Shown piece by piece: positions 8,021 through 20,674 of a stretch of DNA of 29,606 nt (position 1 is the stretch's first letter; each line of letters opens with the position of its first letter). The stretch is from contig JBBRWF010000001.1 of the NCBI GenBank assembly GCA_038249405.1, positions 1 through 29,606 on the forward strand. Direction: 5' to 3'. The position numbers were made by a program, and so were the translations under genes. The notes beneath the pieces were generated by a model. The model searched no databases. It was not told the DNA's origin and saw nothing but the letters and a program-made list of their open reading frames with translations. This stretch comes from Anaerolineales bacterium (lineage in GTDB: Bacteria; Chloroflexota; Anaerolineae; Anaerolineales; Villigracilaceae).

Positions 8021-8791
8021 ATGAGCATGATCCGTTCGGAAATGAATGACCATGTACTGCTCCTGACGATTGACCGGCCCAAAGCCAACGCCTTCAACCT
8101 GGAGTTAATCAGCGAACTGCAAGTCTGCTTCAAACAGGCCGCCAGAGATGCGCAAACCCGCGCGGTGGTATTAACCGGCGCCGGGAGAGTTTTTGGCGCA
8201 GGCCAGGATATTGAGGAGATCAGGGCAGGCGGAGAGAATTTATCTTTCCGGGAACACCTGTTAAGAACGTACAATCCGCTCATTCTGCAAATTCGCCAGA
8301 TCGAGAAACCGGTGATCGCGGCCATCAACGGGCCGTGCGCAGGAGCTTCGCTGGGGATTGCCCTGGCGTGCGATTTGCGCATCGCCGCGGACAGCGCAAG
8401 ATTTGTGGTGGGGTTTGGCGGAATTGGACTGGCTCCAGATTCTGGCGTATCGCTGCTGTTACCGGTCTTGATCGGCCTGGGCCGCAGTCTGGAATTCAGC
8501 TTTAGTAACCAGCCCATTTCCGCCGATAAAGCGCTGGAATGGGGGCTGGTAAATAAGGTAGTTGCGTTTGAGGAGCTTGCCAGTTCAGCCATGACAGACG
8601 CGAGCGAACTTGCCCGAGGGCCAGTAGGCGCATTTGGCCTGGCAAAGCGCACCTTTAACAAAGCAGTTTTGCCAAACCTGGAAGAAGTGCTCGAATATGA
8701 AAGTTTCATCCAGGAAGTGGCAGGGCACCGCCCGGAACATAAAGAGGGCGTGGCTGCATTTTTAGAAAAAAGAGCCCCCAAATTTATTTGA
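8021..8791 (+). CDS. Enoyl-CoA hydratase/isomerase (crotonase) family, PaaG-like
   Basis: TIDRPKANAF, LTGAGRVFGAGQD, KPVIAAINGPCAGA and GLAPDSG (Asp rather than the two hydratase Glu, as in PaaG-type isomerases); C-terminal EGVAAFLEKRAPKF. Confidence 0.88.
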   Translation: MSMIRSEMNDHVLLLTIDRPKANAFNLELISELQVCFKQAARDAQTRAVVLTGAGRVFGAGQDIEEIRAGGENLSFREHLLRTYNPLILQIRQIEKPVIAAINGPCAGASLGIALACDLRIAADSARFVVGFGGIGLAPDSGVSLLLPVLIGLGRSLEFSFSNQPISADKALEWGLVNKVVAFEELASSAMTDASELARGPVGAFGLAKRTFNKAVLPNLEEVLEYESFIQEVAGHRPEHKEGVAAFLEKRAPKFI

Positions 8792-8838
8792 CCTTTTGCC
8801 AAGACGCGGGCTGCCTGCGTTCTGGATGGAATGAGAAC

Positions 8839-10281
8839 ATGCAATACGAACCCGTGATCGGTCTTGAAGTTCACATTGAAATGCTGACAAATTCAAAAAT
8901 GTTTTGCTCCTGCCCGGTGGTGGATTCCACCAATGCGGAGCCCAACAGCGCTGTTTGCCCGATCTGCGCGGGGCACCCAGGGACTTTGCCGGTGATTAAT
9001 GCCAGGGCTGTAGAGTTTGGCCTGCGTGTGGCGTGCGCCCTGGAATGCGAACTGGCACCCATCAGCATTTTTGCGCGAAAAAATTACTTTTACCCGGATC
9101 TGCCCAAAGGCTACCAGATCACACAATATGAACAGCCCCTGGCAGAACACGGCAAAATTACGCTGGTCACAAGCCGTGGTGAGAAGGTAATCCGCATCCG
9201 GCGCGTACACCTTGAAGAAGACACCGGCAAGCTGACACATGTAGAACAGGATGGGAAATCTTTCTCGCTGGTGGATTTGAACCGCGCGGGGGTTTCGTTG
9301 TTGGAAATCGTTACTGAGCCGGATTTTCACCACGCTGAAGAAGTGCGCGCTTATGCTGAGTCGCTGCGCGCGCTGGTACGTTACCTGGGAGTGAACAGCG
9401 GAGACCTTGAAAAAGGCGTGATGCGCATTGAACCCAATATTTCAGTGCGCCCGGTGGGCATTGAAACGCTGGGAACCAAAGTGGAAATCAAAAATTTAAA
9501 TTCTTTCAAAGCACTGGAACGCGGCGTAGCTTATGAAATTAACCGCCAGATTGAAGTGATTGAAGCAGGTAATAAAGTTGTACAGGAAACTGTGGGGTGG
9601 GACGAGGCCAGGCAGGCTACTTACAGCCAACGCTCGAAAGAAGATGCTCATGATTACCGGTATTTTCCAGAACCAGACCTGCCACCCCTGTTGGTCAGCA
9701 AACGCTGGATGGACGAGGTGCGCTATGCACTGCCAGAACTACCATGGGATCGCAGCCGGCGTTTTGTGAGTGAGTACGGTCTGAGCACTGCAGAAGCGTG
9801 GCAACTGGCAACAGAAAAAGCTGCTGGAGATTATTTTGAGGCGGTCATACGGGCTGAGGGCGGAGCCGTGCGAACAGTTTATGCCTGGGTTACCGGTGAG
9901 CTTTTTGCGTTGATGAACATCAGCAACAGCAGTTTCGACACACTGAAGGTCACAGCGCAAGATTTGGCGGATTTGCTCAAGATGATTGCCAATGGTGAGA
10001 TCAACCCGAACACCGGGAAGAGCGTGCTGGTGGAGATGTTTTCCAGCGGCAGCCAGGCGACAAAGATTGTCGCGGCTAAAGGCCTGGGGCAGGTTTCAGA
10101 CACCGGATTTATTGCCAGCATGGTTGGCGAGGTGTTGGCCGAGAACGCTGGCGAAGTAAGCAGCTATCGAGCGGGCAAAATCAGCGTTGCAAACTTCCTG
10201 TTCGGACAGGTGATGCGCAAAGCAGGCGGTAAAGCCAACCCGCAGATGGTGCGGGCCGAGTTGGAAAAGCAACTTCAGTAA
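8839..10281 (+). CDS. gatB: Asp/Glu-tRNA amidotransferase subunit B
   Basis: YEPVIGLEVH, FARKNYFYPDLPKGYQITQ, HLEEDTGK, EIKNLNSF, DYRYFPEPDLPP and GQVMRKAGGKANP. Start taken at MQYEP. Confidence 0.97.
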   Translation: MQYEPVIGLEVHIEMLTNSKMFCSCPVVDSTNAEPNSAVCPICAGHPGTLPVINARAVEFGLRVACALECELAPISIFARKNYFYPDLPKGYQITQYEQPLAEHGKITLVTSRGEKVIRIRRVHLEEDTGKLTHVEQDGKSFSLVDLNRAGVSLLEIVTEPDFHHAEEVRAYAESLRALVRYLGVNSGDLEKGVMRIEPNISVRPVGIETLGTKVEIKNLNSFKALERGVAYEINRQIEVIEAGNKVVQETVGWDEARQATYSQRSKEDAHDYRYFPEPDLPPLLVSKRWMDEVRYALPELPWDRSRRFVSEYGLSTAEAWQLATEKAAGDYFEAVIRAEGGAVRTVYAWVTGELFALMNISNSSFDTLKVTAQDLADLLKMIANGEINPNTGKSVLVEMFSSGSQATKIVAAKGLGQVSDTGFIASMVGEVLAENAGEVSSYRAGKISVANFLFGQVMRKAGGKANPQMVRAELEKQLQ

Positions 10282-10295
10282 CAGGAGCCGATCGC

Positions 10296-10568
10296 ATGTT
10301 GAGTTTAACCACTGAACAAGTCGAAGTGATCCTTAAAAAAACAGCCGCCAGCTTTCCGCATGATGAGTGCCTGACCTGTGAATGTTTTTTGGGACTGGTC
10401 ATGCAGTTGAAAATCGATGCGGAACCAGGCGCGCAAACGCTGCTGGCCAAGTATAAAATACCCCATAAAGAAATGCACGCCTGCCTGGGCTGCGATCCGT
10501 GCCCAGCGGGTGATCGCTACGCACAACACATTCGACAGCACGGAACAGGCAAACTCATTACATTGTAA
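10296..10568 (+). CDS. Small Cys/His-rich hypothetical protein (90 aa), putative metal binding
   Basis: GGAG RBS, 14 nt after the gatB stop; motifs HDECLTCEC and HACLGCDPCP. Confidence 0.75.
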   Translation: MLSLTTEQVEVILKKTAASFPHDECLTCECFLGLVMQLKIDAEPGAQTLLAKYKIPHKEMHACLGCDPCPAGDRYAQHIRQHGTGKLITL

Positions 10569-10615
10569 GAATTATTTGTCTGACAACCATGACTTTTGAC
10601 ATGATGACCATCATA

Positions 10616-10644
10616 TTGACTTTGCCCTAAAACTCGGGTACCCT
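10616..10644 (+). promoter_or_regulatory. Putative sigma70 promoter upstream of the gdh leader
   Basis: TTGACT (10616-10621)-N17-TACCCT (10639-10644). Confidence 0.45.
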
Positions 10645-10674
10645 ATAAGAGTGTGAAATAAGGTGAAAACCAAT

Positions 10675-10704
10675 ATGAATTACCGATCAAGACATATCCC
10701 TTAA
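10675..10704 (+). CDS. Putative leader peptide MNYRSRHIP (9 aa)
   Basis: ATG AAT TAC CGA TCA AGA CAT ATC CCT TAA, preceded by AAGGTG at 10660-10665; ends a few bases before the terminator hairpin. Confidence 0.4.
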   Translation: MNYRSRHIP

Positions 10705-10706
10705 AA

Positions 10707-10745
10707 AAGCGGGCACCCGATCCGGGTGCCCGTTTATATTTTTTT
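10707..10745 (+). terminator. Intrinsic terminator-like hairpin just upstream of gdh
   Basis: GCGGGCACCCG-ATC-CGGGTGCCCGT (10 Watson-Crick pairs plus one G-U) followed by TTATATTTTTTT. Confidence 0.8.
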
Positions 10746-10778
10746 ATAAAGTCAGTCAAACCTAAATAGGAGAAAATA

Positions 10779-12065
10779 ATGGCTGGACAAATCAATGCGT
10801 TTGAAATGGCTCAGAAGCAGTTTGACGGTGTTGCCAAAATGCTTAACCTGGACCCCCAGATCTCTGAAGCACTGCGCTGGCCGATGCGTGAATTCAGCTT
10901 CCGCATCCCTGTGCGCATGGATGATGGCTCGCTGCGAGTCTTCCAGGGCTATCGCGTTCAACACAACGACGCGCGCGGTCCCAATAAAGGCGGCATCCGC
11001 TTCCACCCGAATGAGACCTTCGACACTGTGCGCGCTTTAGCCACCTGGATGACCTGGAAATGCTCCGTGGCCGATATACCGTTAGGCGGGGGCAAGGGCG
11101 GAATCATCGTTGATCCATCCTCGATCACCACGCCTGAAAAAGAACGCCTGTGCCGTGGTTGGGTACAGAACATGTGGAGAAATATTGGCCCACGCCAGGA
11201 TGTTCCCGCGCCAGATGTTGGAACCACCCCGCAGATGATGGGCTGGATGATGGATGAATATTCCAAGCTGGTTGGCGAATATACCCCGGGTGTCTTTACT
11301 GGCAAACCTCTGGGCGGCGGCGGTTCTGAAGGACGCACCGAAGCCACTGGCTACGGCGTCATTTACACCGTGCGCGAAGCGATGAAGCACCTGAAGATCG
11401 ACCCCACCAAATCTGTGGCAGCGCTGGAAGGTTTCGGCAATGTGTCGCAGTATGCAGCCATCGGCTTTGTGGAAATGTTGGGCGGCAAAATTGCCTGTGT
11501 TTCCTGCTGGGATCGCAACGACAAGACATCCTACACCTACAGCCACAAAGACGGCGTGAACCCGCGCTTCCTGCTCACCATTGTCGATCAATACGGCACC
11601 ATTGACCAGAAAAAGGCCAAAGAAGCCGGTTATGTTATTGAAGACGGTGAAAAGTGGATTGCGAAGGAATGCGATGTGCTTATCCCGGCAGCGATTGAAG
11701 GGCACGTGAACGGCGATACCGTCAAGCAAATGTCCAGCCGTGTTAAAATCGTTGCTGAGGGCGCCAACGGTCCTTGCACCCCTGAAGCGGATGAATATTT
11801 CAAGCAGAACGGTATCTTCAACATTCCCGATTTCCTGTGCAATGCAGGCGGCGTAACCACTTCGTACTTTGAATCGGTGCAAAACGATATGAACTTCTAC
11901 TGGACCAAGCAGGAAGTTCTCGAACGCCTGGATACCAAAATGACAATGGCGTTCCACGCTGTGCTCGAAATGAGTGAGAAGGAAAAGGTTTATATGCGCG
12001 ATGCGGCTTATATGGTTGCCATCGACCGTGTAGTGAAGGCCATGCAGCTGCGCGGCTGGATCTAA
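10779..12065 (+). CDS. gdhA: Glu/Leu/Phe/Val dehydrogenase family, probably glutamate dehydrogenase
   Basis: RGPNKGGIRFHP, GGGKGG, VPAPDVGT, TGKP..GGS.GR.EATGYG, EGFGNV, EGANGP and PDFLCNAGGVTTSYFE; AGGAG RBS. Confidence 0.9.
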   Translation: MAGQINAFEMAQKQFDGVAKMLNLDPQISEALRWPMREFSFRIPVRMDDGSLRVFQGYRVQHNDARGPNKGGIRFHPNETFDTVRALATWMTWKCSVADIPLGGGKGGIIVDPSSITTPEKERLCRGWVQNMWRNIGPRQDVPAPDVGTTPQMMGWMMDEYSKLVGEYTPGVFTGKPLGGGGSEGRTEATGYGVIYTVREAMKHLKIDPTKSVAALEGFGNVSQYAAIGFVEMLGGKIACVSCWDRNDKTSYTYSHKDGVNPRFLLTIVDQYGTIDQKKAKEAGYVIEDGEKWIAKECDVLIPAAIEGHVNGDTVKQMSSRVKIVAEGANGPCTPEADEYFKQNGIFNIPDFLCNAGGVTTSYFESVQNDMNFYWTKQEVLERLDTKMTMAFHAVLEMSEKEKVYMRDAAYMVAIDRVVKAMQLRGWI

Positions 12066-12575: not shown

Positions 12576-13247
12576 TTATTCCCGTTGTTTTTGCCCAAAA
12601 TTGCAAACAGAAAGGAGCGGGCAGGCGTTACAAAGCGGTTTGCGGGCATGGCAGATTTCACGTCCGAGGCGAATGATGTTCAGATGTGCGGCATAGTATG
12701 AGGTTGGAGGGAAAATGCCTTCGAGATAGGGATGGGCAGCTTCCACAGAGATATTTTCGGGGCGCAGTCCGATACGACCGGTTACGCGGTAAACATGCGT
12801 ATCGACCGGGAAGGCGGGACGACCAAGCGAAAAACAAAGGACAATCGCGGCAGTTTTTGGACCGACCCCGTTAAATTTTGTTAACCAGGCGCGGGCTTCT
12901 TCCAAGGGCAAGCTGCTGAGGAAAGATAAATCCAGCCCGCCGCGCTCCAGGGTGATCTGACGTAACACCTGCTGAATACGCGGGCCTTTCTGGTTGGCCA
13001 GCCCTGCCACGCGAATACAGGCGATTACATCTGATTCTGGCGCATCGCGAACAGCTTCCCAGGTGGAGTAACTGGCCTGTAAGGCGTTAAATGCCTTATC
13101 ACGATTAACATCGTTCGTATTTTGAGAAAGGATGGTGGACACCAGTTCATCCACTGGAGGCAGCGGGTTACGCCAAATGGGTTCGCCGTAAAATGCGAGC
13201 AAAGTCTGGTGTATCAGAACGGCGCGATCACCCGGTGAACCCATCAT
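12576..13247 (-). CDS. nth: Endonuclease III family HhH-GPD DNA glycosylase
   Basis: ILSQNTND, GVGPKTA (catalytic Lys), FPVDTHVYRV (catalytic Asp) and 4Fe-4S motif CHARKPLCNACPLLSVC. TAATG overlap with the upstream gene. Confidence 0.88.
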   Translation of the reverse strand: MMGSPGDRAVLIHQTLLAFYGEPIWRNPLPPVDELVSTILSQNTNDVNRDKAFNALQASYSTWEAVRDAPESDVIACIRVAGLANQKGPRIQQVLRQITLERGGLDLSFLSSLPLEEARAWLTKFNGVGPKTAAIVLCFSLGRPAFPVDTHVYRVTGRIGLRPENISVEAAHPYLEGIFPPTSYYAAHLNIIRLGREICHARKPLCNACPLLSVCNFGQKQRE

Positions 13248-14290
13248 TATTGTTTGAGTACGAAGGTCGGGCGACTGACACCAATTTTGAGATTGCGATA
13301 ATTTTGCAGTTGAATTTCTGGCCCAAAGCTGGAGAGTTGTGCAAGTTGCGTACTGTCGAGCGCGCCGAGTGCCTGCAAAATTGCCAGCGCCACGGCAGTT
13401 CGGGCGCGGTCGTGTGAATCTCCATCACTGATCTTTATGGCAATTCCAATTCCCGGCGAACCAGCGCCCAGAGCACCTGGCATCAGGCCGATACTTTGAA
13501 AGCCTTCGGCGCCGCCCTTGACCAGGATGGCACCTTTCCCGGCAGTCATCAGCACGGTATCAAAACGTTCAGGGCCTCCGACCATGTCTGGATGACTCAT
13601 CATGGCTGAGGTGATTGTCCGACAGGCAGCAGTGCGTTCAGGGGATAATTCGTAGGGGTCGCAAAGCCGGGCATAGCCGTAGGCGGCATTGTAAAGCGGG
13701 ACAGCAAAGTTTGGAGCGGAACAACCGTCAATACCAAGCTCAACACTTTCGGCTGGTATGACGCACATCTCGGAAAAAGCCTGCAAAATGCTTTCTTGAA
13801 TGGGGTGATGAAAATCGAGATAGTTTTCAAGAGGTTTGGAGCGAAGTTTGGCATGCGCAAGCATGCCGGTATGCTTGCCCGAGCAGTTGTGGCGATACTG
13901 TGTGGGCAGTTCGCCGCGCACTTTCATAGCGTCGGCAGTGGGCTCGTGGATAGGATAATGCGTACCGCACAAAAGATCACTGGCGCTGACACCAATTTTG
14001 GCCTGCATGCCTTTGACCGTCTCAACATGCTCATCTGTGCCGGAATGTGATGAACACATCAATGATATTTCGCGGCTGGTCAGGCCGAATTTTTCGTGCC
14101 CACCGCGCTCAATAAATGGCAAAGCCTGGAATGGTTTTGCGCTGGAGCGCAGAAAAGTGACCAGGTTCGGATCACCCAGAGATGCCAGCAATTTGCCATG
14201 CGAATCGACAACGGCGGCGGCACCAAAGTGAAGCGATTCAACAATATTCCCACGGGTTAATTCAAAAACTGGCTGGTAAGAGTCTGTCAC
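13247..14290 (-). CDS. L-asparaginase II (Rhizobium etli AnsA type)
   Basis: RSSAKPFQA, CSSHSG, NCSGKH, DGCSAP and KGGAEG motifs are all intact. GTG start at 14290 has GAGGA upstream; the ORF track starts at 14305. Confidence 0.88.
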   Translation of the reverse strand: MTDSYQPVFELTRGNIVESLHFGAAAVVDSHGKLLASLGDPNLVTFLRSSAKPFQALPFIERGGHEKFGLTSREISLMCSSHSGTDEHVETVKGMQAKIGVSASDLLCGTHYPIHEPTADAMKVRGELPTQYRHNCSGKHTGMLAHAKLRSKPLENYLDFHHPIQESILQAFSEMCVIPAESVELGIDGCSAPNFAVPLYNAAYGYARLCDPYELSPERTAACRTITSAMMSHPDMVGGPERFDTVLMTAGKGAILVKGGAEGFQSIGLMPGALGAGSPGIGIAIKISDGDSHDRARTAVALAILQALGALDSTQLAQLSSFGPEIQLQNYRNLKIGVSRPTFVLKQ

Positions 14291-14291
14291 T

Positions 14292-15152
14292 TTATTCCTC
14301 ATCATTTTCAGAAGCGCCGGATGATCGATAATGCCGGATGAAGTAGTGCCTTAAACCATAGGCAAGCCGCTGATGATATTGTTTTTGCCTGTCAGCCGAA
14401 GCATTGAAGGAAGCGGATAATATGGGCATAAGGGTTTCGACCGCATCTGGGCTGCTGGAACTTTTTGCCAAAGCATCGAGTTTTTGATTAAGCCTACTGA
14501 GCATTTCGAGCTGGTCTTCAGCAACCTCAGTTGAAACCACCGCGCTGCGTCCACTGACAATTGTATAGTCGTGATAATCAGCGATGAGGTGATCGAGCGA
14601 TTTTATCCAGTCGACCAAATTCGCACTTGCTAAAAATGGAGGTTGATTCTTTACCACAAGATCGCCAACGAAGATAATTTTTGGCTCGGGTAGAATTACC
14701 CAGCAAGCACCGTGTGCGGGGCCGGGATGGTGTTCCAGTACAACCGAAAAATTACTCCATTCAATTGACATGCGCGAGGTGAAGGAGATTTCGGGAGGAG
14801 CCCATCGAACGCTCCCCAGGCCTGCGACTGATTCCCAGTCGGCGCCGGTTTCATCGCCCTGGGCTTTGAATGTGTTGGGGCGATTGCGAAATGTTTCCGC
14901 AGTTTTTTCGTGACCCACGATTGTACAGTCCATAGCGCGAGCACCCAATGTGCGGTCTGGGTGCCCGTCCAGATTTATCAATAAACGTTCCACACCTGTG
15001 TTTAGACTGAGTAACTCGGCGCGCCAGGAACGGCCATCTTCGGGAGAGGGCGGCGCATCGATCTGGATCAGCCCATGAGGTAATGCGATGGCCCCCAATG
15101 TAACACCAGGAAACTGGTCTTCGATATAAACTTGACTGGCGAGTGCCTGCAT
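14292..15152 (-). CDS. Metallo-beta-lactamase-fold protein with degenerate metal-binding motifs
   Basis: Layout matches the cyclase-like MBL fold (QIDAP, LINLDGHPDRTLG, VGHEKT, HPGPAHG, FVGDL, IVSGR), but HxHxDH reads DGHPDR. AAGGAG RBS. Confidence 0.78.
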   Translation of the reverse strand: MQALASQVYIEDQFPGVTLGAIALPHGLIQIDAPPSPEDGRSWRAELLSLNTGVERLLINLDGHPDRTLGARAMDCTIVGHEKTAETFRNRPNTFKAQGDETGADWESVAGLGSVRWAPPEISFTSRMSIEWSNFSVVLEHHPGPAHGACWVILPEPKIIFVGDLVVKNQPPFLASANLVDWIKSLDHLIADYHDYTIVSGRSAVVSTEVAEDQLEMLSRLNQKLDALAKSSSSPDAVETLMPILSASFNASADRQKQYHQRLAYGLRHYFIRHYRSSGASENDEE

Positions 15153-15168
15153 GAAAACTCCTTTAATG

Positions 15169-15222: not shown

Positions 15223-17280
15223 TTATTTTGCGAATGGTAACGTAAATTTAAATTTCGAGCCGTGTTCGGGGGCAGGCTCCACCCAAATTTTCCCGCCGTG
15301 ACCCTGCACGGCAAGCTTGCAAAAAGCCAGCCCAACCCCGAGACCACTGGCAGCTGTTTTGTTCTTGAGACGGGTAAATTTATCAAAAATCCGTTCACCG
15401 TCCGCCTCGGGGATTCCTGGGCCATTATCTTGAACAGAAATGCGTAAAAAATCGCCACTTTCCTCTGCAGCGACCACTATCATGCCACCCATTGGGGTGT
15501 ATTTGGCTGCATTTTCCAGTAGATTAATCAATACGCGCCTGATCATATCGACATCTATGGACACAGGCGGAAGACCTTCGGTCATATTAACAACAATGGT
15601 CTGTTCGCGACCATCCGCGGAGGGTTTGATCGCTTCGAGAGCATAACTGAACAGCTTGGAGACTTCCACTTGCTCACGCTCACCCACTGGCTGGTTTTGC
15701 TCAAGGCGATTGAGATCCAGCAAGGAACTGACAAGGCGTTGGATACGATCAATCGAGTGGTGCGCAATCGTCAAAATTGGTTCGGCGGCTTCTTTTTCAG
15801 ATTCGGGGAAGACAGCTCCGAGCATTTCCACACTAGACAGAATATTTGCGAGCGGCGAGCGTAAATCGTGATAAATCATGGCCGCCAAGTCTTCACGCAA
15901 AGCATCCAGATCTTTGCGCTCGGTGATATCACGCAAAATCCACTGGAGCGATTCGGCTTCATCGAACACCACTTTCCGAACATATACTTCGACTGGATGC
16001 GTGCCCCCATGAACATCATACAAGGTTGCTTCGTATGTGATAGTAGAGTCACCGATTTTTTCCAATTGGCGACCGGCTTTTTCATGATTTACTTCATGTA
16101 CTTGCTCAATACCAATCTCGCGTAGGTCAACCGAAGTATGTCCGGTGAAGAAAGTAGCCTGGTTATTGACTTCCAGGATGCGCCCTTGCAAATCGGTAAT
16201 AACAATAGGGTCGATACTGTCTTCAAACAGGTCGCGATAACGTTTACGCGCTACATCGAGGCTTTCAAACAATTGCGCATTTTGAATGGTGGTACCAGCG
16301 AGCGCGCCAAAACCTGTTAGAACCAACAAAGCATCTGGATCAAAAGATTTATTATTAACAGGGTTGATGGCTTCCAATACGCCAATAACTTTACCCTGTA
16401 CGTGGATGGGGGCACAGACGAGTGCGCGCACCTTTACATCTGCAATTCTTTCTGATTCAGATAGAATTGGCTGGGTATCAGAGGCCAGCGAGGGAATAAT
16501 GATGCCTCGTTCCTGCCGAACAACCACTCCGGCAATTCCTTCCCGAAGTTTCAGGCGCCTGCCAACCAGGCTTTGATTTCCATTGGCTGCGCGGAAAACG
16601 AGTTCCTGTCCTTCGACCATTGCAAGGGCTGTGATTTCCACTTGCAGGGTTTGCCTGGTGAGCGTCAATATGTTTTCAAACAAATCGTCGATGCGCACAA
16701 ATGAGCTTAAACGAGCTGCGCCTTCGGCAAGAGCAGTCATGACACGCGCCTGACGCTGGCTTTCGGAGAACAGACGGGCGTTCAGCACAGCAATACCCGC
16801 CTGGTCTGCAATAGCCTGCATCAGTTCGAGATGGTCATTTGTATAGGCGTTTGGAGTTGGGTGAACCAGGGTGAGAACACCAACGAGATTCTCGCGCGTC
16901 ATGAGCGGCACACAAATAGCCGATTTCGCTCCAGAGCGATTGACCGAATCATCCTCCCGGCGCAACCAGCGCTCATCTTTGCTGGTATCGGGAACCAGGG
17001 TGGCTTTGCGGCTGCGAATCACCCAGCCTGCCAGGCCGCGATCTACAGTATCTTTTAATTGCAGGGTTGTACTTTCACGCACCTGGTTACCATAAACGAT
17101 TGCAGAATTAACCGCCCGGCCATTATCATCCATGACCACCACGCTGCCGCGTTCTCCACCCACGTTGTTGATGGCGGAAAATAAAACGCGAGTGAGCACA
17201 GTTTTTAGATCGAGCGCTGTGGCAAATTCCCGGCTCACTTTGTAGAGCAGTTCGAGGACTGCACGTTGGTTTTGGGGCAT
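15223..17280 (-). CDS. Cytoplasmic sensor histidine kinase, GAF-GAF-PAS-HisKA-HATPase
   Basis: Two GAF ends (AIADQAGIAVLNARLF, GALAGTTIQNAQLF), PAS (LFEDSIDPIVITDLQGRILEVN...WILRDITERK), H-box HDLRSPL, N-box NLLENAAKYT, DNGPGI and GLGVGLAFC. No transmembrane segment. Start taken at MPQNQ with GAGG upstream. Confidence 0.93.
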   Translation of the reverse strand: MPQNQRAVLELLYKVSREFATALDLKTVLTRVLFSAINNVGGERGSVVVMDDNGRAVNSAIVYGNQVRESTTLQLKDTVDRGLAGWVIRSRKATLVPDTSKDERWLRREDDSVNRSGAKSAICVPLMTRENLVGVLTLVHPTPNAYTNDHLELMQAIADQAGIAVLNARLFSESQRQARVMTALAEGAARLSSFVRIDDLFENILTLTRQTLQVEITALAMVEGQELVFRAANGNQSLVGRRLKLREGIAGVVVRQERGIIIPSLASDTQPILSESERIADVKVRALVCAPIHVQGKVIGVLEAINPVNNKSFDPDALLVLTGFGALAGTTIQNAQLFESLDVARKRYRDLFEDSIDPIVITDLQGRILEVNNQATFFTGHTSVDLREIGIEQVHEVNHEKAGRQLEKIGDSTITYEATLYDVHGGTHPVEVYVRKVVFDEAESLQWILRDITERKDLDALREDLAAMIYHDLRSPLANILSSVEMLGAVFPESEKEAAEPILTIAHHSIDRIQRLVSSLLDLNRLEQNQPVGEREQVEVSKLFSYALEAIKPSADGREQTIVVNMTEGLPPVSIDVDMIRRVLINLLENAAKYTPMGGMIVVAAEESGDFLRISVQDNGPGIPEADGERIFDKFTRLKNKTAASGLGVGLAFCKLAVQGHGGKIWVEPAPEHGSKFKFTLPFAK

Positions 17281-17336
17281 AAAACCTCGAAGAAACCGCT
17301 TGCAGCTGCGGCCTGGCAAATGTTTCCAACCAGCCG

Positions 17337-18509
17337 TTACTGCGATAAATAGTTCAAACCCGATGCAGGGTTCACTATAACCACACACTCATCGTTGTTT
17401 ATCCAACCAGATCTCACTAATTGCTGTAGAGCAGCCAGGCCAGCACCAACCTGGGGAGCTGCAAAAATTCCCTCGCAAAGCGCCAGCTCTTTTTGATAGG
17501 CCAGAATTTTCTGATCCGCTACAGCTACTACTGTGCCCATACTTTCACGAATGGCTCGCAATATCAGACGATCAGCGAAGACATCGGCTATTCGTAAGGC
17601 AGAAATGACAGTCTCAACATGCTGCCAACGAGATGCACGTGCGCTTTTTTCATCAAAGGCACGCGCAAGCGGGGCACAACCACTGGCCTGGGCCGCCACC
17701 AAACGGGGCCGTTTTGCTCCGAGCAAGCCCAACTGCTCCAATTCGCCAAATGTTTTCCACAATCCCAAAAGCTCCAGGCCGTCGCCAGTGGGTAAAATAA
17801 TCACATCCGGCAATTCCCAGGCAAACGCTTCCGCCAGCTCAAGGCCGATGGTTTTAGCGCCTTCGCAACGATAAGGTTCTCGAAAAGCCGAGATATCCAA
17901 CCATCCGCGAGAACTGGCAACTTCGGCAGCCATACAGGCGGCATCCGAAAACAAGCCATCCACCAGAATCAGCTGTGCGCCAAAGGTTTTAACCGCAACT
18001 TGCTCCGCAACAGGCGCATCTTTGGACATAAAAATATGCGCACGGGAGCGAGAACGGGCAGCGCAGGCTGCCAGCGCGGGGCCATCCGATCCGTAGGCAG
18101 CCAGGGTAAAATCACGCACGCCTAATTCAAGAGCGCGTGCCACGGCCACTGTCAGGCCGCGATGCTCAAGGGAGCCTAATGGACCGTGAGACTCATCCTT
18201 TATAAATAGTGCGGGCAAACCCAGCGCTTTCCCCAGGTTGAAAGCCTGTAAAACAGGCGCGTTTGCTTCGCCCAGGGTCATTCGGAATGATGGTGTACGG
18301 ACAGGCAGGATTTCGCTCCAGCGCCAAATACCTCCCTGACGTTGCGACAGAGACTCACGCGTAAGTGTTGACTTTGCCACGGGTATATCATAAATCGCCA
18401 TCAGAGGGCTGGAACAATCCAAACAAAAGGTTTGCAAAGTATCCGGAGTAAAAAACCTGCCGCATTCAGGGCATTCAAGCCGCAAGAACGCACTCTGGGA
18501 TGGCCGCAT
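17337..18509 (-). CDS. Threonine synthase-like (fold-type II PLP family) protein lacking the PLP lysine
   Basis: ThrC layout (CPECG..CLDC zinc knuckle, GIWRWSEILP, TLGEANAP, LFIKDE, EPYRCEGAKTIGLELAE, AQASGCAPL), but GSFKxRG reads GSLEHRG. Start taken at MRPSQ. Confidence 0.85.
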   Translation of the reverse strand: MRPSQSAFLRLECPECGRFFTPDTLQTFCLDCSSPLMAIYDIPVAKSTLTRESLSQRQGGIWRWSEILPVRTPSFRMTLGEANAPVLQAFNLGKALGLPALFIKDESHGPLGSLEHRGLTVAVARALELGVRDFTLAAYGSDGPALAACAARSRSRAHIFMSKDAPVAEQVAVKTFGAQLILVDGLFSDAACMAAEVASSRGWLDISAFREPYRCEGAKTIGLELAEAFAWELPDVIILPTGDGLELLGLWKTFGELEQLGLLGAKRPRLVAAQASGCAPLARAFDEKSARASRWQHVETVISALRIADVFADRLILRAIRESMGTVVAVADQKILAYQKELALCEGIFAAPQVGAGLAALQQLVRSGWINNDECVVIVNPASGLNYLSQ

Positions 18510-18516
18510 AGGACAA

Positions 18517-18525
18517 AGTATAGCA
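18517..18525 (-). promoter_or_regulatory. Extended -10 element 7 nt before the ThrC-like ATG (probable leaderless mRNA)
   Basis: Minus strand reads TGcTATACT-ttgtcct-ATG, with no Shine-Dalgarno sequence. Confidence 0.6.
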
Positions 18526-18577
18526 CAATTGGTATATTTCCCAATAAAAACAACAAGTGCGTGTATCATTTTGTTTC

Positions 18578-18624: not shown

Positions 18625-19308
18625 ATGTCATTAGACCTTTCGCGGATCCAGGCCCTGTGTTTTGATGTTGACGGCACGCTGAACGATACAGATGATCAGT
18701 TTGTAGAACAGGCGCTGCCATTCTTCAAAGCCGTCCGTTTTTCGCTGCCTGGAAGGGATGCTTACTGCGCAGCACGGCATTTTGTCATGTGGGCTGAAGC
18801 TCCAGGCAATGCGCTGATCGGCTTGCCAGACAGGTTTGGGTTTGACGATGAATTGAGTAAACTGGCAATCTGGCTGAACCAGAAACGCAAAGCGAAAATC
18901 AAGGTGTTTCGCCCCATTGACGGTGTTGTTGAATTGCTGGATGAGCTGCACGGCAAATACCCATTGGCTGTGGTGAGCGCAAGAGAAGAAGAATCCACCC
19001 GGGAATTTCTGCACCAGGCAGAAATTGAGAAATATTTTACATGCGTGGCCGGGGCATTAACGGTAAAACATACCAAACCATACCCGGACCCGATCTATTG
19101 GGCTGCACAACAAATGGGAGTGCAGGCCAAAAATTGCCTGATGATTTGTGATACAACAATAGATATTCGCGCCGGGAAAGCAGCTGCAACGTAAACTGTG
19201 GGGGTATTATGCGGTTTTGGGGAAGAAAAAGAACTTCGCCGACTGGGTGCTGTTTTGATATTGGAGAGTACTCCCCTGCTGACCGGTGAATTATTGCGGA
19301 ACCTATAA
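18625..19308 (+). pseudogene. HAD-family hydrolase (phosphoglycolate phosphatase-like) with internal TAA at 19192-19194
   Basis: Motifs FDVDGTL, VVSAR and KPYPDP. After the TAA the same frame continues TVGVLCGFGEEKELRRLGAVLILESTP to a TAA at 19306-19308, which is a typical HAD C-terminus. Confidence 0.8.
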
Positions 19309-19567
19309 AAGTCAATGATTAAGAAGGGGAAGTGAAAAACTGTTTCTGTGAAGTGGAAAAGATTATACCGACTGTCGAATATATCCAGGCAGGGGTATTC
19401 TGCGCCACATTTCAATGCACCGGAAGGACTCAATGTATCCCATTTGAAAAAGAGCGGGCAGGTGCGGATCTGTGACCTGGATATTTTCCACGTGAGCAGC
19501 CAGTTGCGGGTGTAGATGATGCAAATGTGAAAGAAAGGCGCAGGCCAAAGCGGCCGGATTACCCTGC

Positions 19568-20674
19568 TCAGCAAAAAAAACGTGTGAGAGAACTGAAGTC
19601 GTACTGGGCCGCATACGATTCGCCATAGCGCATCAGCAGACGCACTGCTGTTGGCGAAGTAAAAATGCCAGTTATATTGAATTCTTCTATGATCTTCCAA
19701 AGCGTACCGGGATCCGGGCAATCAATCGCACCTTCATAGACGACGGTGGTGCAACCCATAATGAGCGGCGCGTAAACAATATAACTATGACCAACGAGCC
19801 AACCGATGTCGGAAGTGGACCACCAAATATCGGTTGGCTGCAGGCCAAAGACCCAGCGCGCCATGCTTGAAATCCAGACCTGGTAGGCGCCGTGTGTATG
19901 AACAGCCAGCTTAGGCCTGGCGGTTGTCCCTGAATTGGCGATCATAAAGGCTGGTTCGTTGGCTTCCATCGGGATATAGCCGCCAGGCTGTCCTTTGCCA
20001 TGGACCAAAAACTCATCCCAGGTCAGATCGCGCTCTGCCTGCATGGGTACATCCGCTGTGCCACGTTTAAGAACCACCACATGCTCAACCGAATGCCCGC
20101 CGCCTTCCAGGGCAGTATCTACAATCTCTTTTAGCGGAACATCCTTGCCCTTACGGTAGGTAAAATCTCCAATGAAGAGCGCTCTGGAACCACTGGCCCG
20201 AACACGATCCCCGAGCGCCCCGGCTCCAAAACCAGCAAAGACAACCGAATGAATGGCGCCGATCCTGACAGAAGCCAGCATGACTATGCTGGCTTCGGGA
20301 CAGGTGGGCATGTAAATGGTGAGCCGATCTCCCTTTTGCAACCCCATGCCTCGCAGCGCGGCAGAGACACGCTCCACCTCGTGCAAGAGTTGAGCATACG
20401 TAAACAGGCGGTGTTCTCAGCGCTCGGTGACATAGATAAGCGCTGTGTGACCGCCCCAGCCGCGCTGCACATGAAAATCGAGGGCATTGTAAGCCAGGTT
20501 GGTTTCGCCCCCCTGGAACCAGCGGAAGGTGGGAAAATCCCATTCAAAAACTCTCTCCCAGGGGCGGAACAGATGCAATTGCGCGGCTGCTTTGGCCTAA
20601 AACTGTTCAGGGTTCTCACGGGATTCCTCGAGCCAGCGATTCACTAGCGGGTTAACGAGATCGACGCCAGACAT
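19568..20674 (-). pseudogene. acs: Acetyl-CoA synthetase-like gene, with two internal stops and the 3' end missing
   Basis: From ATG 20674 (RBS AAAGGAGGAG): MSGVDLVNP...NPEQF*AKAA...RWFQGGETNLAYNALD...TER*EHRLFTYAQL...GAIHSVVFAGF...SGTTARPK...WSTSDIGWLVGHSYIVYAPL...TSPTAVRLL. Stops are TAG 20597-20599 and TGA 20417-20419. Homology ends at about 19570. Confidence 0.88.

Follow-up and report, generated by a model that had tools for sequence, protein, structure and literature searches.

Arginine at a classical zinc-ligand position in a large, uncharacterised clade of metallo-beta-lactamase-fold proteins linked to a class-3 asparaginase in Anaerolineales

Introduction

The default annotation of a protein with the metallo-beta-lactamase (MBL) fold is zinc hydrolase. 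In the classical active site, positions 116, 118 and 196 form metal site 1 and positions 120, 221 and 263 form metal site 2. Members that do not have the full set of metal ligands are represented by CPSF100 and IntS9, eukaryotic beta-CASP proteins that bind the RNA-processing machinery; these MBL-fold pseudoenzymes are thought to act as non-catalytic partners. The chlorothalonil dehalogenase Chd has one metal per active site, its catalytic zinc being held by Asp116, His117, Asn216 and His257 (PMC12784990). The solved protein nearest to the one described here is 8d2z from Burkholderia cenocepacia, which carries the name 'Metallo-beta-lactamase superfamily protein' and is uncharacterised; a literature search on the structure code found no paper.

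Here we analyse an MBL-fold gene (P0001) within a window, that is, the whole stretch of 29,606 nucleotides at positions 1 to 29,606 of contig JBBRWF010000001.1 (assembly GCA_038249405.1), from an Anaerolineales bacterium of the Villigracilaceae. The genome is metagenome-assembled (739 contigs, 87% complete), and near-identical DNA is contained in freshwater and sediment metagenome runs, which may be the assembly's own source; no RNA run was listed for this region. A prediction made from the letters of the window had described an MBL-fold protein whose metal-binding histidines are largely replaced, whose pocket may have been rebuilt to bind an anion without metal and whose gene may be translationally coupled to that of an asparaginase. 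A literature search found no paper describing an MBL clade of this arginine type (Arg-type hereafter), an MBL pseudoenzyme with arginine or a metal-independent MBL fold.

Results

Gene and fold

The gene occupies positions 14292 to 15152 of the minus strand, stop codon included, and encodes 286 amino acids. The reading frame is real and runs on the minus strand from the ATG at 15152 to the TAA at 14294-14292, with a ribosome-binding site (Shine-Dalgarno AAGGAG at 15158 to 15163, minus strand) 5 nt before the ATG. The translation has no N-terminal signal peptide. Conservation of the frame is far above chance, with 3462 homologues at E ≤ 0.001 in a 90%-clustered collection and 771 cluster representatives at the same threshold in a 50%-clustered library. 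Where the organism is given, the homologues come mostly from Chloroflexi/Chloroflexota; the records call them 'glyoxylase-like hydrolase', 'cyclase' or hypothetical protein.

Profile and structure comparisons, which had been proposed as checks on the family assignment, both place the protein in the MBL superfamily. It scores 31.1 bits against Pfam Lactamase_B (PF00753; gathering cut-off 22.7), and a confident AlphaFold2 model (pLDDT 94.7, pTM 0.92, from an 84-sequence alignment) has the alpha-beta/beta-alpha sandwich fold and matches solved MBL structures with Z of 22-29. The best match is 8d2z (Z 28.6, rmsd 2.4, 266 residues), with which the profile alignment gives an E of 1.9e-30; Chd (6uxu) reaches a Z of 26.9 over 265 residues and the B1/B2 lactamases 22-24. 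Residues 208-276 form a C-terminal three-helix extension (14325 to 14531, minus strand; DSSP helices 208-230, 235-246 and 253-276), and the structural alignments to 8d2z and Chd span residues 1-277, these helices included. None of the curated subfamily models tested claims the protein: the NCBIfam B1 lactamase models (NF033088, IMP/SIM/KHM) give 16-22 bits against cut-offs of 200-560, and the SoxH-related models TIGR04558 (cut-off 300) and TIGR04559 (cut-off 280) give 47.3 and 42.1 bits, respectively. It is thus below every curated subfamily cut-off tested and a member of the superfamily by homology and fold. A search of the ESM Atlas returned matches from its own family only. These results are best explained by a cytoplasmic protein with the MBL fold that belongs to the B1/B2/Chd-like branch and is extended at its C-terminus by three helices.

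Metal-ligand motifs

The first motif reads D62-G-H64-P-D66-R67 (14952 to 14969, minus strand; a leucine precedes D62) and corresponds to positions 116-121 of HxHxDH, of which His118 and Asp120 only are kept (His64 and Asp66). Further along the minus strand, P143-G-P145-A146 (14715 to 14726) brings Pro145 to the His196 position in the profile alignment to 8d2z, G163-D164 (14661 to 14666) retains the equivalent of Asp221 as D164, and S200-G-R202 (14547 to 14555) brings Arg202 to the His263 position in the alignments to IMP and 8d2z. The protein therefore departs from the metallo-hydrolase ligand set at three of six positions: His116, His196 and His263 are gone, while Asp/Cys221 is represented by Asp164. 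These are the four motifs from which the original prediction had counted four of the five histidines of the HxHxDH/H196/H263 scheme as changed, and both the motifs and the count are borne out. Because His196 and His263 are both gone, the canonical His-based binuclear zinc site cannot form in P0001, in line with the original interpretation, and the protein is probably not an ordinary zinc hydrolase.

A misalignment could in principle create the appearance of ligand loss in an ordinary, active zinc hydrolase. An argument for it comes from phmmer, which puts His147 of P-G-P-A-H on His196 of the IMP enzymes, together with His141 and His142, which lie just upstream and are kept in close homologues. 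We rejected His147 as the equivalent of His196, since the position is His in 1 of 26 close homologues, and the profile alignments to 8d2z and to canonical relatives match Pro145 exactly to His196 and Arg202 to His263, so that the alignment of the original prediction stands. His141 and His142 were likewise rejected as replacement ligands: canonical relatives, too, can have a His at position 141, and the residue at position 142 is variable within the clade (H/R/K or hydrophobic). The scores against the NCBIfam beta-lactamase models, far under their cut-offs, also speak against an ordinary hydrolase, and we regard this explanation as highly improbable.

The two arginines, which the original prediction had treated alike as substitutions, have different histories. 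R202 is clade-specific, but R67 is the normal residue of B1/B2-type proteins and predates the loss. Arg121 is native in BcII (for which 'Arg(121)Cys' and 'R121H' mutant entries exist in the PDB) and in CphA (N-Y-H-T-D-R), and is also found in some canonical relatives of the branch, with the signatures D-H-D-R-H-D-H and H-H-D-R-H-D-H. Asp116 is likewise usual in the nearest canonical relatives (D/E-x-H-x-D-H ... G-H-T ... G/S-D ... P-G-H-G). Given that Arg121 and Asp116 also occur in canonical relatives, only two changes define the clade, His196 to Pro/Ala/Ser/Val and His263 to Arg, and these remove one ligand from each classical zinc site.

Conservation of the remodelled site

Conservation was assessed in 89 full-length representatives (50% clustering) with identities down to about 23%. 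D62, D66, R67, D164 and R202 are about 90-99% conserved when counted over 82-89 cluster representatives. Position by position, 116 (D62) is D in 82/89 representatives, 120 (D66) is D in 80/89 and E in 6/89, 121 (R67) is R in 84/89, 221 (D164) is D in 88/89 and 263 (R202) is R in 76/89, whereas 196 (P145) is other than His in 82/89. Position 118 (H64) is H in 67, N in 10, S in 5 and Q in 4 of the 89. The two clade-defining histidines were lost jointly: 74/89 representatives are without His196 and have Arg263, and 4/89 keep both histidines. The original prediction hinged on whether the arginines are conserved in homologues, which they are. Moreover, R67 is encoded by all six arginine codons and R202 by five, so it is the amino acid and not the codon that is kept, and the remodelled site is under selection.

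Additional residues are characteristic of the Arg-type clade. Trp151 is fixed in 75/82 members, where canonical relatives have small residues; position 262 in the last helix is Arg in 64/82 and otherwise Gln; and position 142 is basic (H/R/K) in 47/82 and hydrophobic in canonical relatives. A maximum-likelihood tree of 103 sequences has all canonical forms on one side of a branch with an SH-aLRT support of 91, and all others are Arg-type; the orthologue group of the window comprises 45 rows of the tree with a support of 99. In close homologues of P0001, the segment 89-124 is invariant. Judged from these patterns, the metal site was not abandoned but remodelled, and then frozen.

The three near-invariant aspartates (90-99%) and a position 64 that is polar and never hydrophobic among the 89 representatives could fit a single hard-metal site, and P0001 may be an enzyme with a rebuilt mononuclear site in which Asp62, His64 (Asn, Ser or Gln in some members), Asp66 and Asp164 hold Mg, Mn or Fe while Arg67 and Arg202 bind and polarise an anionic substrate, for example a phosphate, sulfate or carboxylate ester. 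One-metal MBL enzymes do exist, as Chd (PMC12784990) and mono-zinc CphA (PDB titles) show. Within the family, the MBL protein is as highly conserved (55-60% identity) as the intact asparaginase encoded beside it (50-60%), which favours an enzyme; in the sister family, however, it drifts to 30-34% identity while the asparaginase keeps 51-59%. The arginine at position 263 would also place a positive charge beside the proposed metal, and we know of no MBL-fold enzyme that uses the ligand set D62/H64/D66/D164. On balance, we consider a mononuclear enzyme somewhat unlikely.

Neighbourhood and synteny

The gene lies within a block of minus-strand genes. The first is a ThrC-like protein (17337 to 18569) that scores 424 bits, above the NCBIfam threonine synthase cut-off of 303, and yet is without the PLP lysine, reading G-S-L-E-H-R-G against the expected G-S-F-K-D-R-G. 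A cytoplasmic histidine kinase with the Pfam architecture GAF-GAF-PAS-HisKA-HATPase (15223 to 17388) ends 70 nt upstream of the MBL gene. Downstream lies a class-3 L-asparaginase (13247 to 14290; PF06089, asparaginase II, 370.7 bits), in whose translation S-x-x-K, C-x-x-K and a second Cys can be found by eye; these are the motifs described for class-3 asparaginases (PMC8602277, PMC12292245). An endonuclease III-family DNA glycosylase (12576 to 13247; Pfam, NCBIfam and synteny) is the last gene of the syntenic block. With gatB (Asp/Glu-tRNA amidotransferase subunit B) and a glutamate dehydrogenase just upstream of the block, at 8788-12065, the neighbourhood is rich in genes of Asn/Asp/Glu and nitrogen metabolism. 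On the other side, a 272-aa minus-strand ORF for an AMP-binding enzyme (19568-20386) covers profile positions 30-292 of 384 only and is overlapped by a 208-aa minus-strand ORF with no Pfam hit (19095-19721); together, 19095-20386 (minus strand) may represent a frameshifted or split acyl-CoA synthetase-type gene.

For a comparison of this arrangement, 301 genomes of the phylum were sampled. The same family yielded strong single-copy matches to P0001 in 19/19 genomes and the sister family in 8/8 (a tally that includes the unpublished genome G038, on which no particular statement depends). Asparaginase II is directly downstream of the MBL gene in 24 of the 25 loci of the order, usually with the endonuclease III-type glycosylase next after it, and the GAF-GAF-PAS kinase precedes the MBL gene in 17 of the 25. 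The sole locus of the order without asparaginase II (L012, genome G067) has about 900 bp between the MBL gene and nth; PF06089 was not found anywhere in this 98% complete genome, where the absence may reflect a recent loss or a decayed gene. Neither association is obligatory. Phylum-wide, PF06089 occurs in 106/301 genomes, mostly without an adjoining MBL gene (a tally that includes the unpublished genomes G272, G145, G173 and G227). In one family, 23/25 genomes have an orthologue of the kinase but just 12/25 the MBL gene; conversely, small genomes of the sister family keep the MBL-asparaginase pair without the kinase, and no match to the kinase was found in one of them, G076.

A second Arg-type subclade, at 24-32% identity, is found in other families of the same class, where kinase, AlaX-L, MBL and Crp genes form a cluster, seen for example at positions 3992-9002 of L026 and at L071-L084. 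AlaX-L, with its HxxxH and CxxxH motifs intact, is directly upstream of the MBL gene in 13/15 of these loci, at a gap of 3 nt in L026, and Crp is downstream in 8/15. When matches over at least 40% of the query are counted, 10/15 loci have a kinase upstream, although the one in L079, with an identity of about 27%, is probably no orthologue; in L079 the order is kinase, AlaX, MBL and asparaginase II, the last in place of Crp. Between the two subclades, the kinases find each other as reciprocal best hits, at 445 bits where the next match has 156-167. Hence the Arg-type MBL gene travels in a recurrent neighbourhood of amino-acid and signalling genes without a single obligatory partner.

Apparent gene fusions were also inspected and rejected. 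A singleton MBL-asparaginase fusion on a 5.4-Mb contig (P0275) is a frameshift that leaves the C-terminal MBL helices out of frame, and a singleton fusion of the kinase C-terminus to the MBL on a 2.7-kb contig (P0274) arises by in-frame read-through across 10 spacer codons. In two genomes, the gene is surrounded by open frames of 871 and 624 aa, which are artefacts of alternative frames and not fusions.

The junction with the asparaginase gene

At the junction of the MBL and asparaginase genes, the sequence GAGGAA-TAA-A-GTG (14288 to 14300, minus strand) contains a Shine-Dalgarno, the MBL stop, 1 nt and a GTG start. The originally reported spacing of 1 nt is accordingly right for a start at the GTG at 14290, 5 nt downstream of GAGGA, and not for the longest asparaginase ORF, which starts with the ATG at 14305 and would overlap P0001 by 14 nt. 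The translational coupling suggested from this spacing gains weight from the order as a whole, where in about 20/24 loci the stop of the MBL gene overlaps the start of the asparaginase gene (ATGA, TAATG or TGATG) or is separated from it by 6 nt or less, an approximate count because the choice of start codons was positional. Close homologues end in an invariant Glu-Glu, and its codons GAG-GAA (14295-14300, minus strand) are the asparaginase Shine-Dalgarno itself; because of this coincidence, the conservation of the tail may represent an RNA-level constraint.

A coupling so widely conserved could mean that the protein works only through contact with other proteins. P0001 might then be a structural relic without a small-molecule ligand, in which an Arg-Asp network replaces zinc as the stabiliser of the fold and whose role is purely one of protein-protein interaction, for instance that of a subunit that helps to assemble or regulate the asparaginase dimer or the kinase. 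The tight linkage to AlaX in the sister subclade (3 nt in L026) and the invariance of segment 89-124 in close homologues would agree with this, and MBL-fold pseudoenzyme subunits are known in CPSF100 and IntS9. The partners, however, vary by lineage (asparaginase, AlaX, Crp, kinase), which speaks against a single partner protein common to all, and the clade-specific R262, W151 and basic 142 suggest a maintained pocket. We therefore think a relic unlikely.

Discussion

From the observed fold, ligand losses, conservation and gene linkage, we infer a replacement of metal by arginine, the binding of a ligand and a role as a partner. The reading that we tentatively prefer, at somewhat less than even confidence, is that P0001 is a non-hydrolytic, ligand-binding accessory or sensing partner with an arginine-for-metal site, coupled to the class-3 asparaginase. 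The guanidinium of Arg202 would most likely take the old Zn2 position, as standard MBL geometry, in which positions 120, 221 and 263 converge on Zn2, would suggest; there it would pair with Asp66 and Asp164, aided by the pre-existing Arg67. Such a swap could relieve the fold of its need for zinc while the former active-site cleft would be kept by selection as a putative site for a small ligand, whether polar, anionic or zwitterionic, with Arg67, Arg202, Arg262, basic 142, Trp151 and Asp62/66/164 as candidate lining residues. The protein may thus serve as a non-hydrolytic accessory or ligand sensor made in fixed proportion with the downstream asparagine hydrolase and, in many lineages, may also be a partner of the orphan GAF-GAF-PAS kinase. 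A point against this reading is that neither the asparaginase nor the kinase is obligatory.

The original idea of a pocket for an anion without metal is weakened by the results. R202 is the only new arginine, and D62, D66 and D164 would face the two arginines; with three near-invariant aspartates opposite two arginines, the centre would not obviously be net positive. A zwitterionic amino acid, perhaps Asp or Asn given the neighbouring gene, would fit such a mixed Asp/Arg site, although this is speculation. A broader and more doubtful proposal is that the Arg-type MBL protein is a metal-free sensor of small molecules or an adaptor, made by exchanging zinc for arginine, in a class-wide module of recycled enzymes, in which the ThrC without its lysine, the Arg-type MBL and the orphan GAF-GAF-PAS kinase would be joined to asparaginase, AlaX or Crp as outputs, or else that it represents new metal-independent or Mg-dependent MBL chemistry.

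Whichever reading holds, the Arg-type proteins form a large, old and uncharacterised clade in which the two metal sites lost their function jointly and the replacements then froze. If arginine replaces zinc, the clade would provide a clear natural example of a metalloenzyme scaffold turning metal-independent; if true, thousands of 'glyoxylase-like hydrolase' and 'cyclase' annotations would be corrected. Class-3 asparaginases are of current biomedical interest and their physiology is poorly known. The conserved coupling to one of them gives the Arg-type clade a concrete candidate partner.

Among known systems, 8d2z shares Arg121, Arg263 and the C-terminal helices with P0001 (S-H-Y-H-A-V-R ... 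G-H-T ... G-D ... P-G-R-G in 8d2z). It differs in keeping His116, His118 and His196, and thereby an intact site 1, and in having Val120, where P0001 has Asp116, Pro196 and Asp120. In the tree, the 8d2z-type representative L033 groups with a canonical relative outside the clade of the window, so Arg263 arose independently in the 8d2z type. L033 belongs with L040, L041, L043, L044 and L049, all from genomes of family f16, to a second, separate MBL family with the signature T-H-Y-H-A-V-R ... G-H-T ... G-D ... G-G-R-G; in this 8d2z-type family, site 2 alone seems to have been deleted.

Chd shares the fold with P0001, including the C-terminal extension, and is itself a one-metal MBL enzyme, which shows that proteins of this branch can function with a single metal; its two histidine ligands would, by motif position, correspond to Arg67 and Arg202 of P0001. 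The B1/B2 lactamases (BcII, IMP, CphA) have in common with P0001 the core fold and Arg121 after Asp120, and a residue other than His at position 116 is found in B2 enzymes as in P0001 (CphA N-x-H-x-D-R). They differ from P0001 in their retained His196 and His263, their Cys221, their secretion and their lack of the C-terminal helices. MBL-fold pseudoenzymes are already known in principle, and what the Arg-type clade contributes is a large family whose sequence facts are solid. Its relation to CPSF100 and IntS9 is at the level of the superfamily only: whereas their degenerate sites drift, that of the P0001 clade is nearly invariant.
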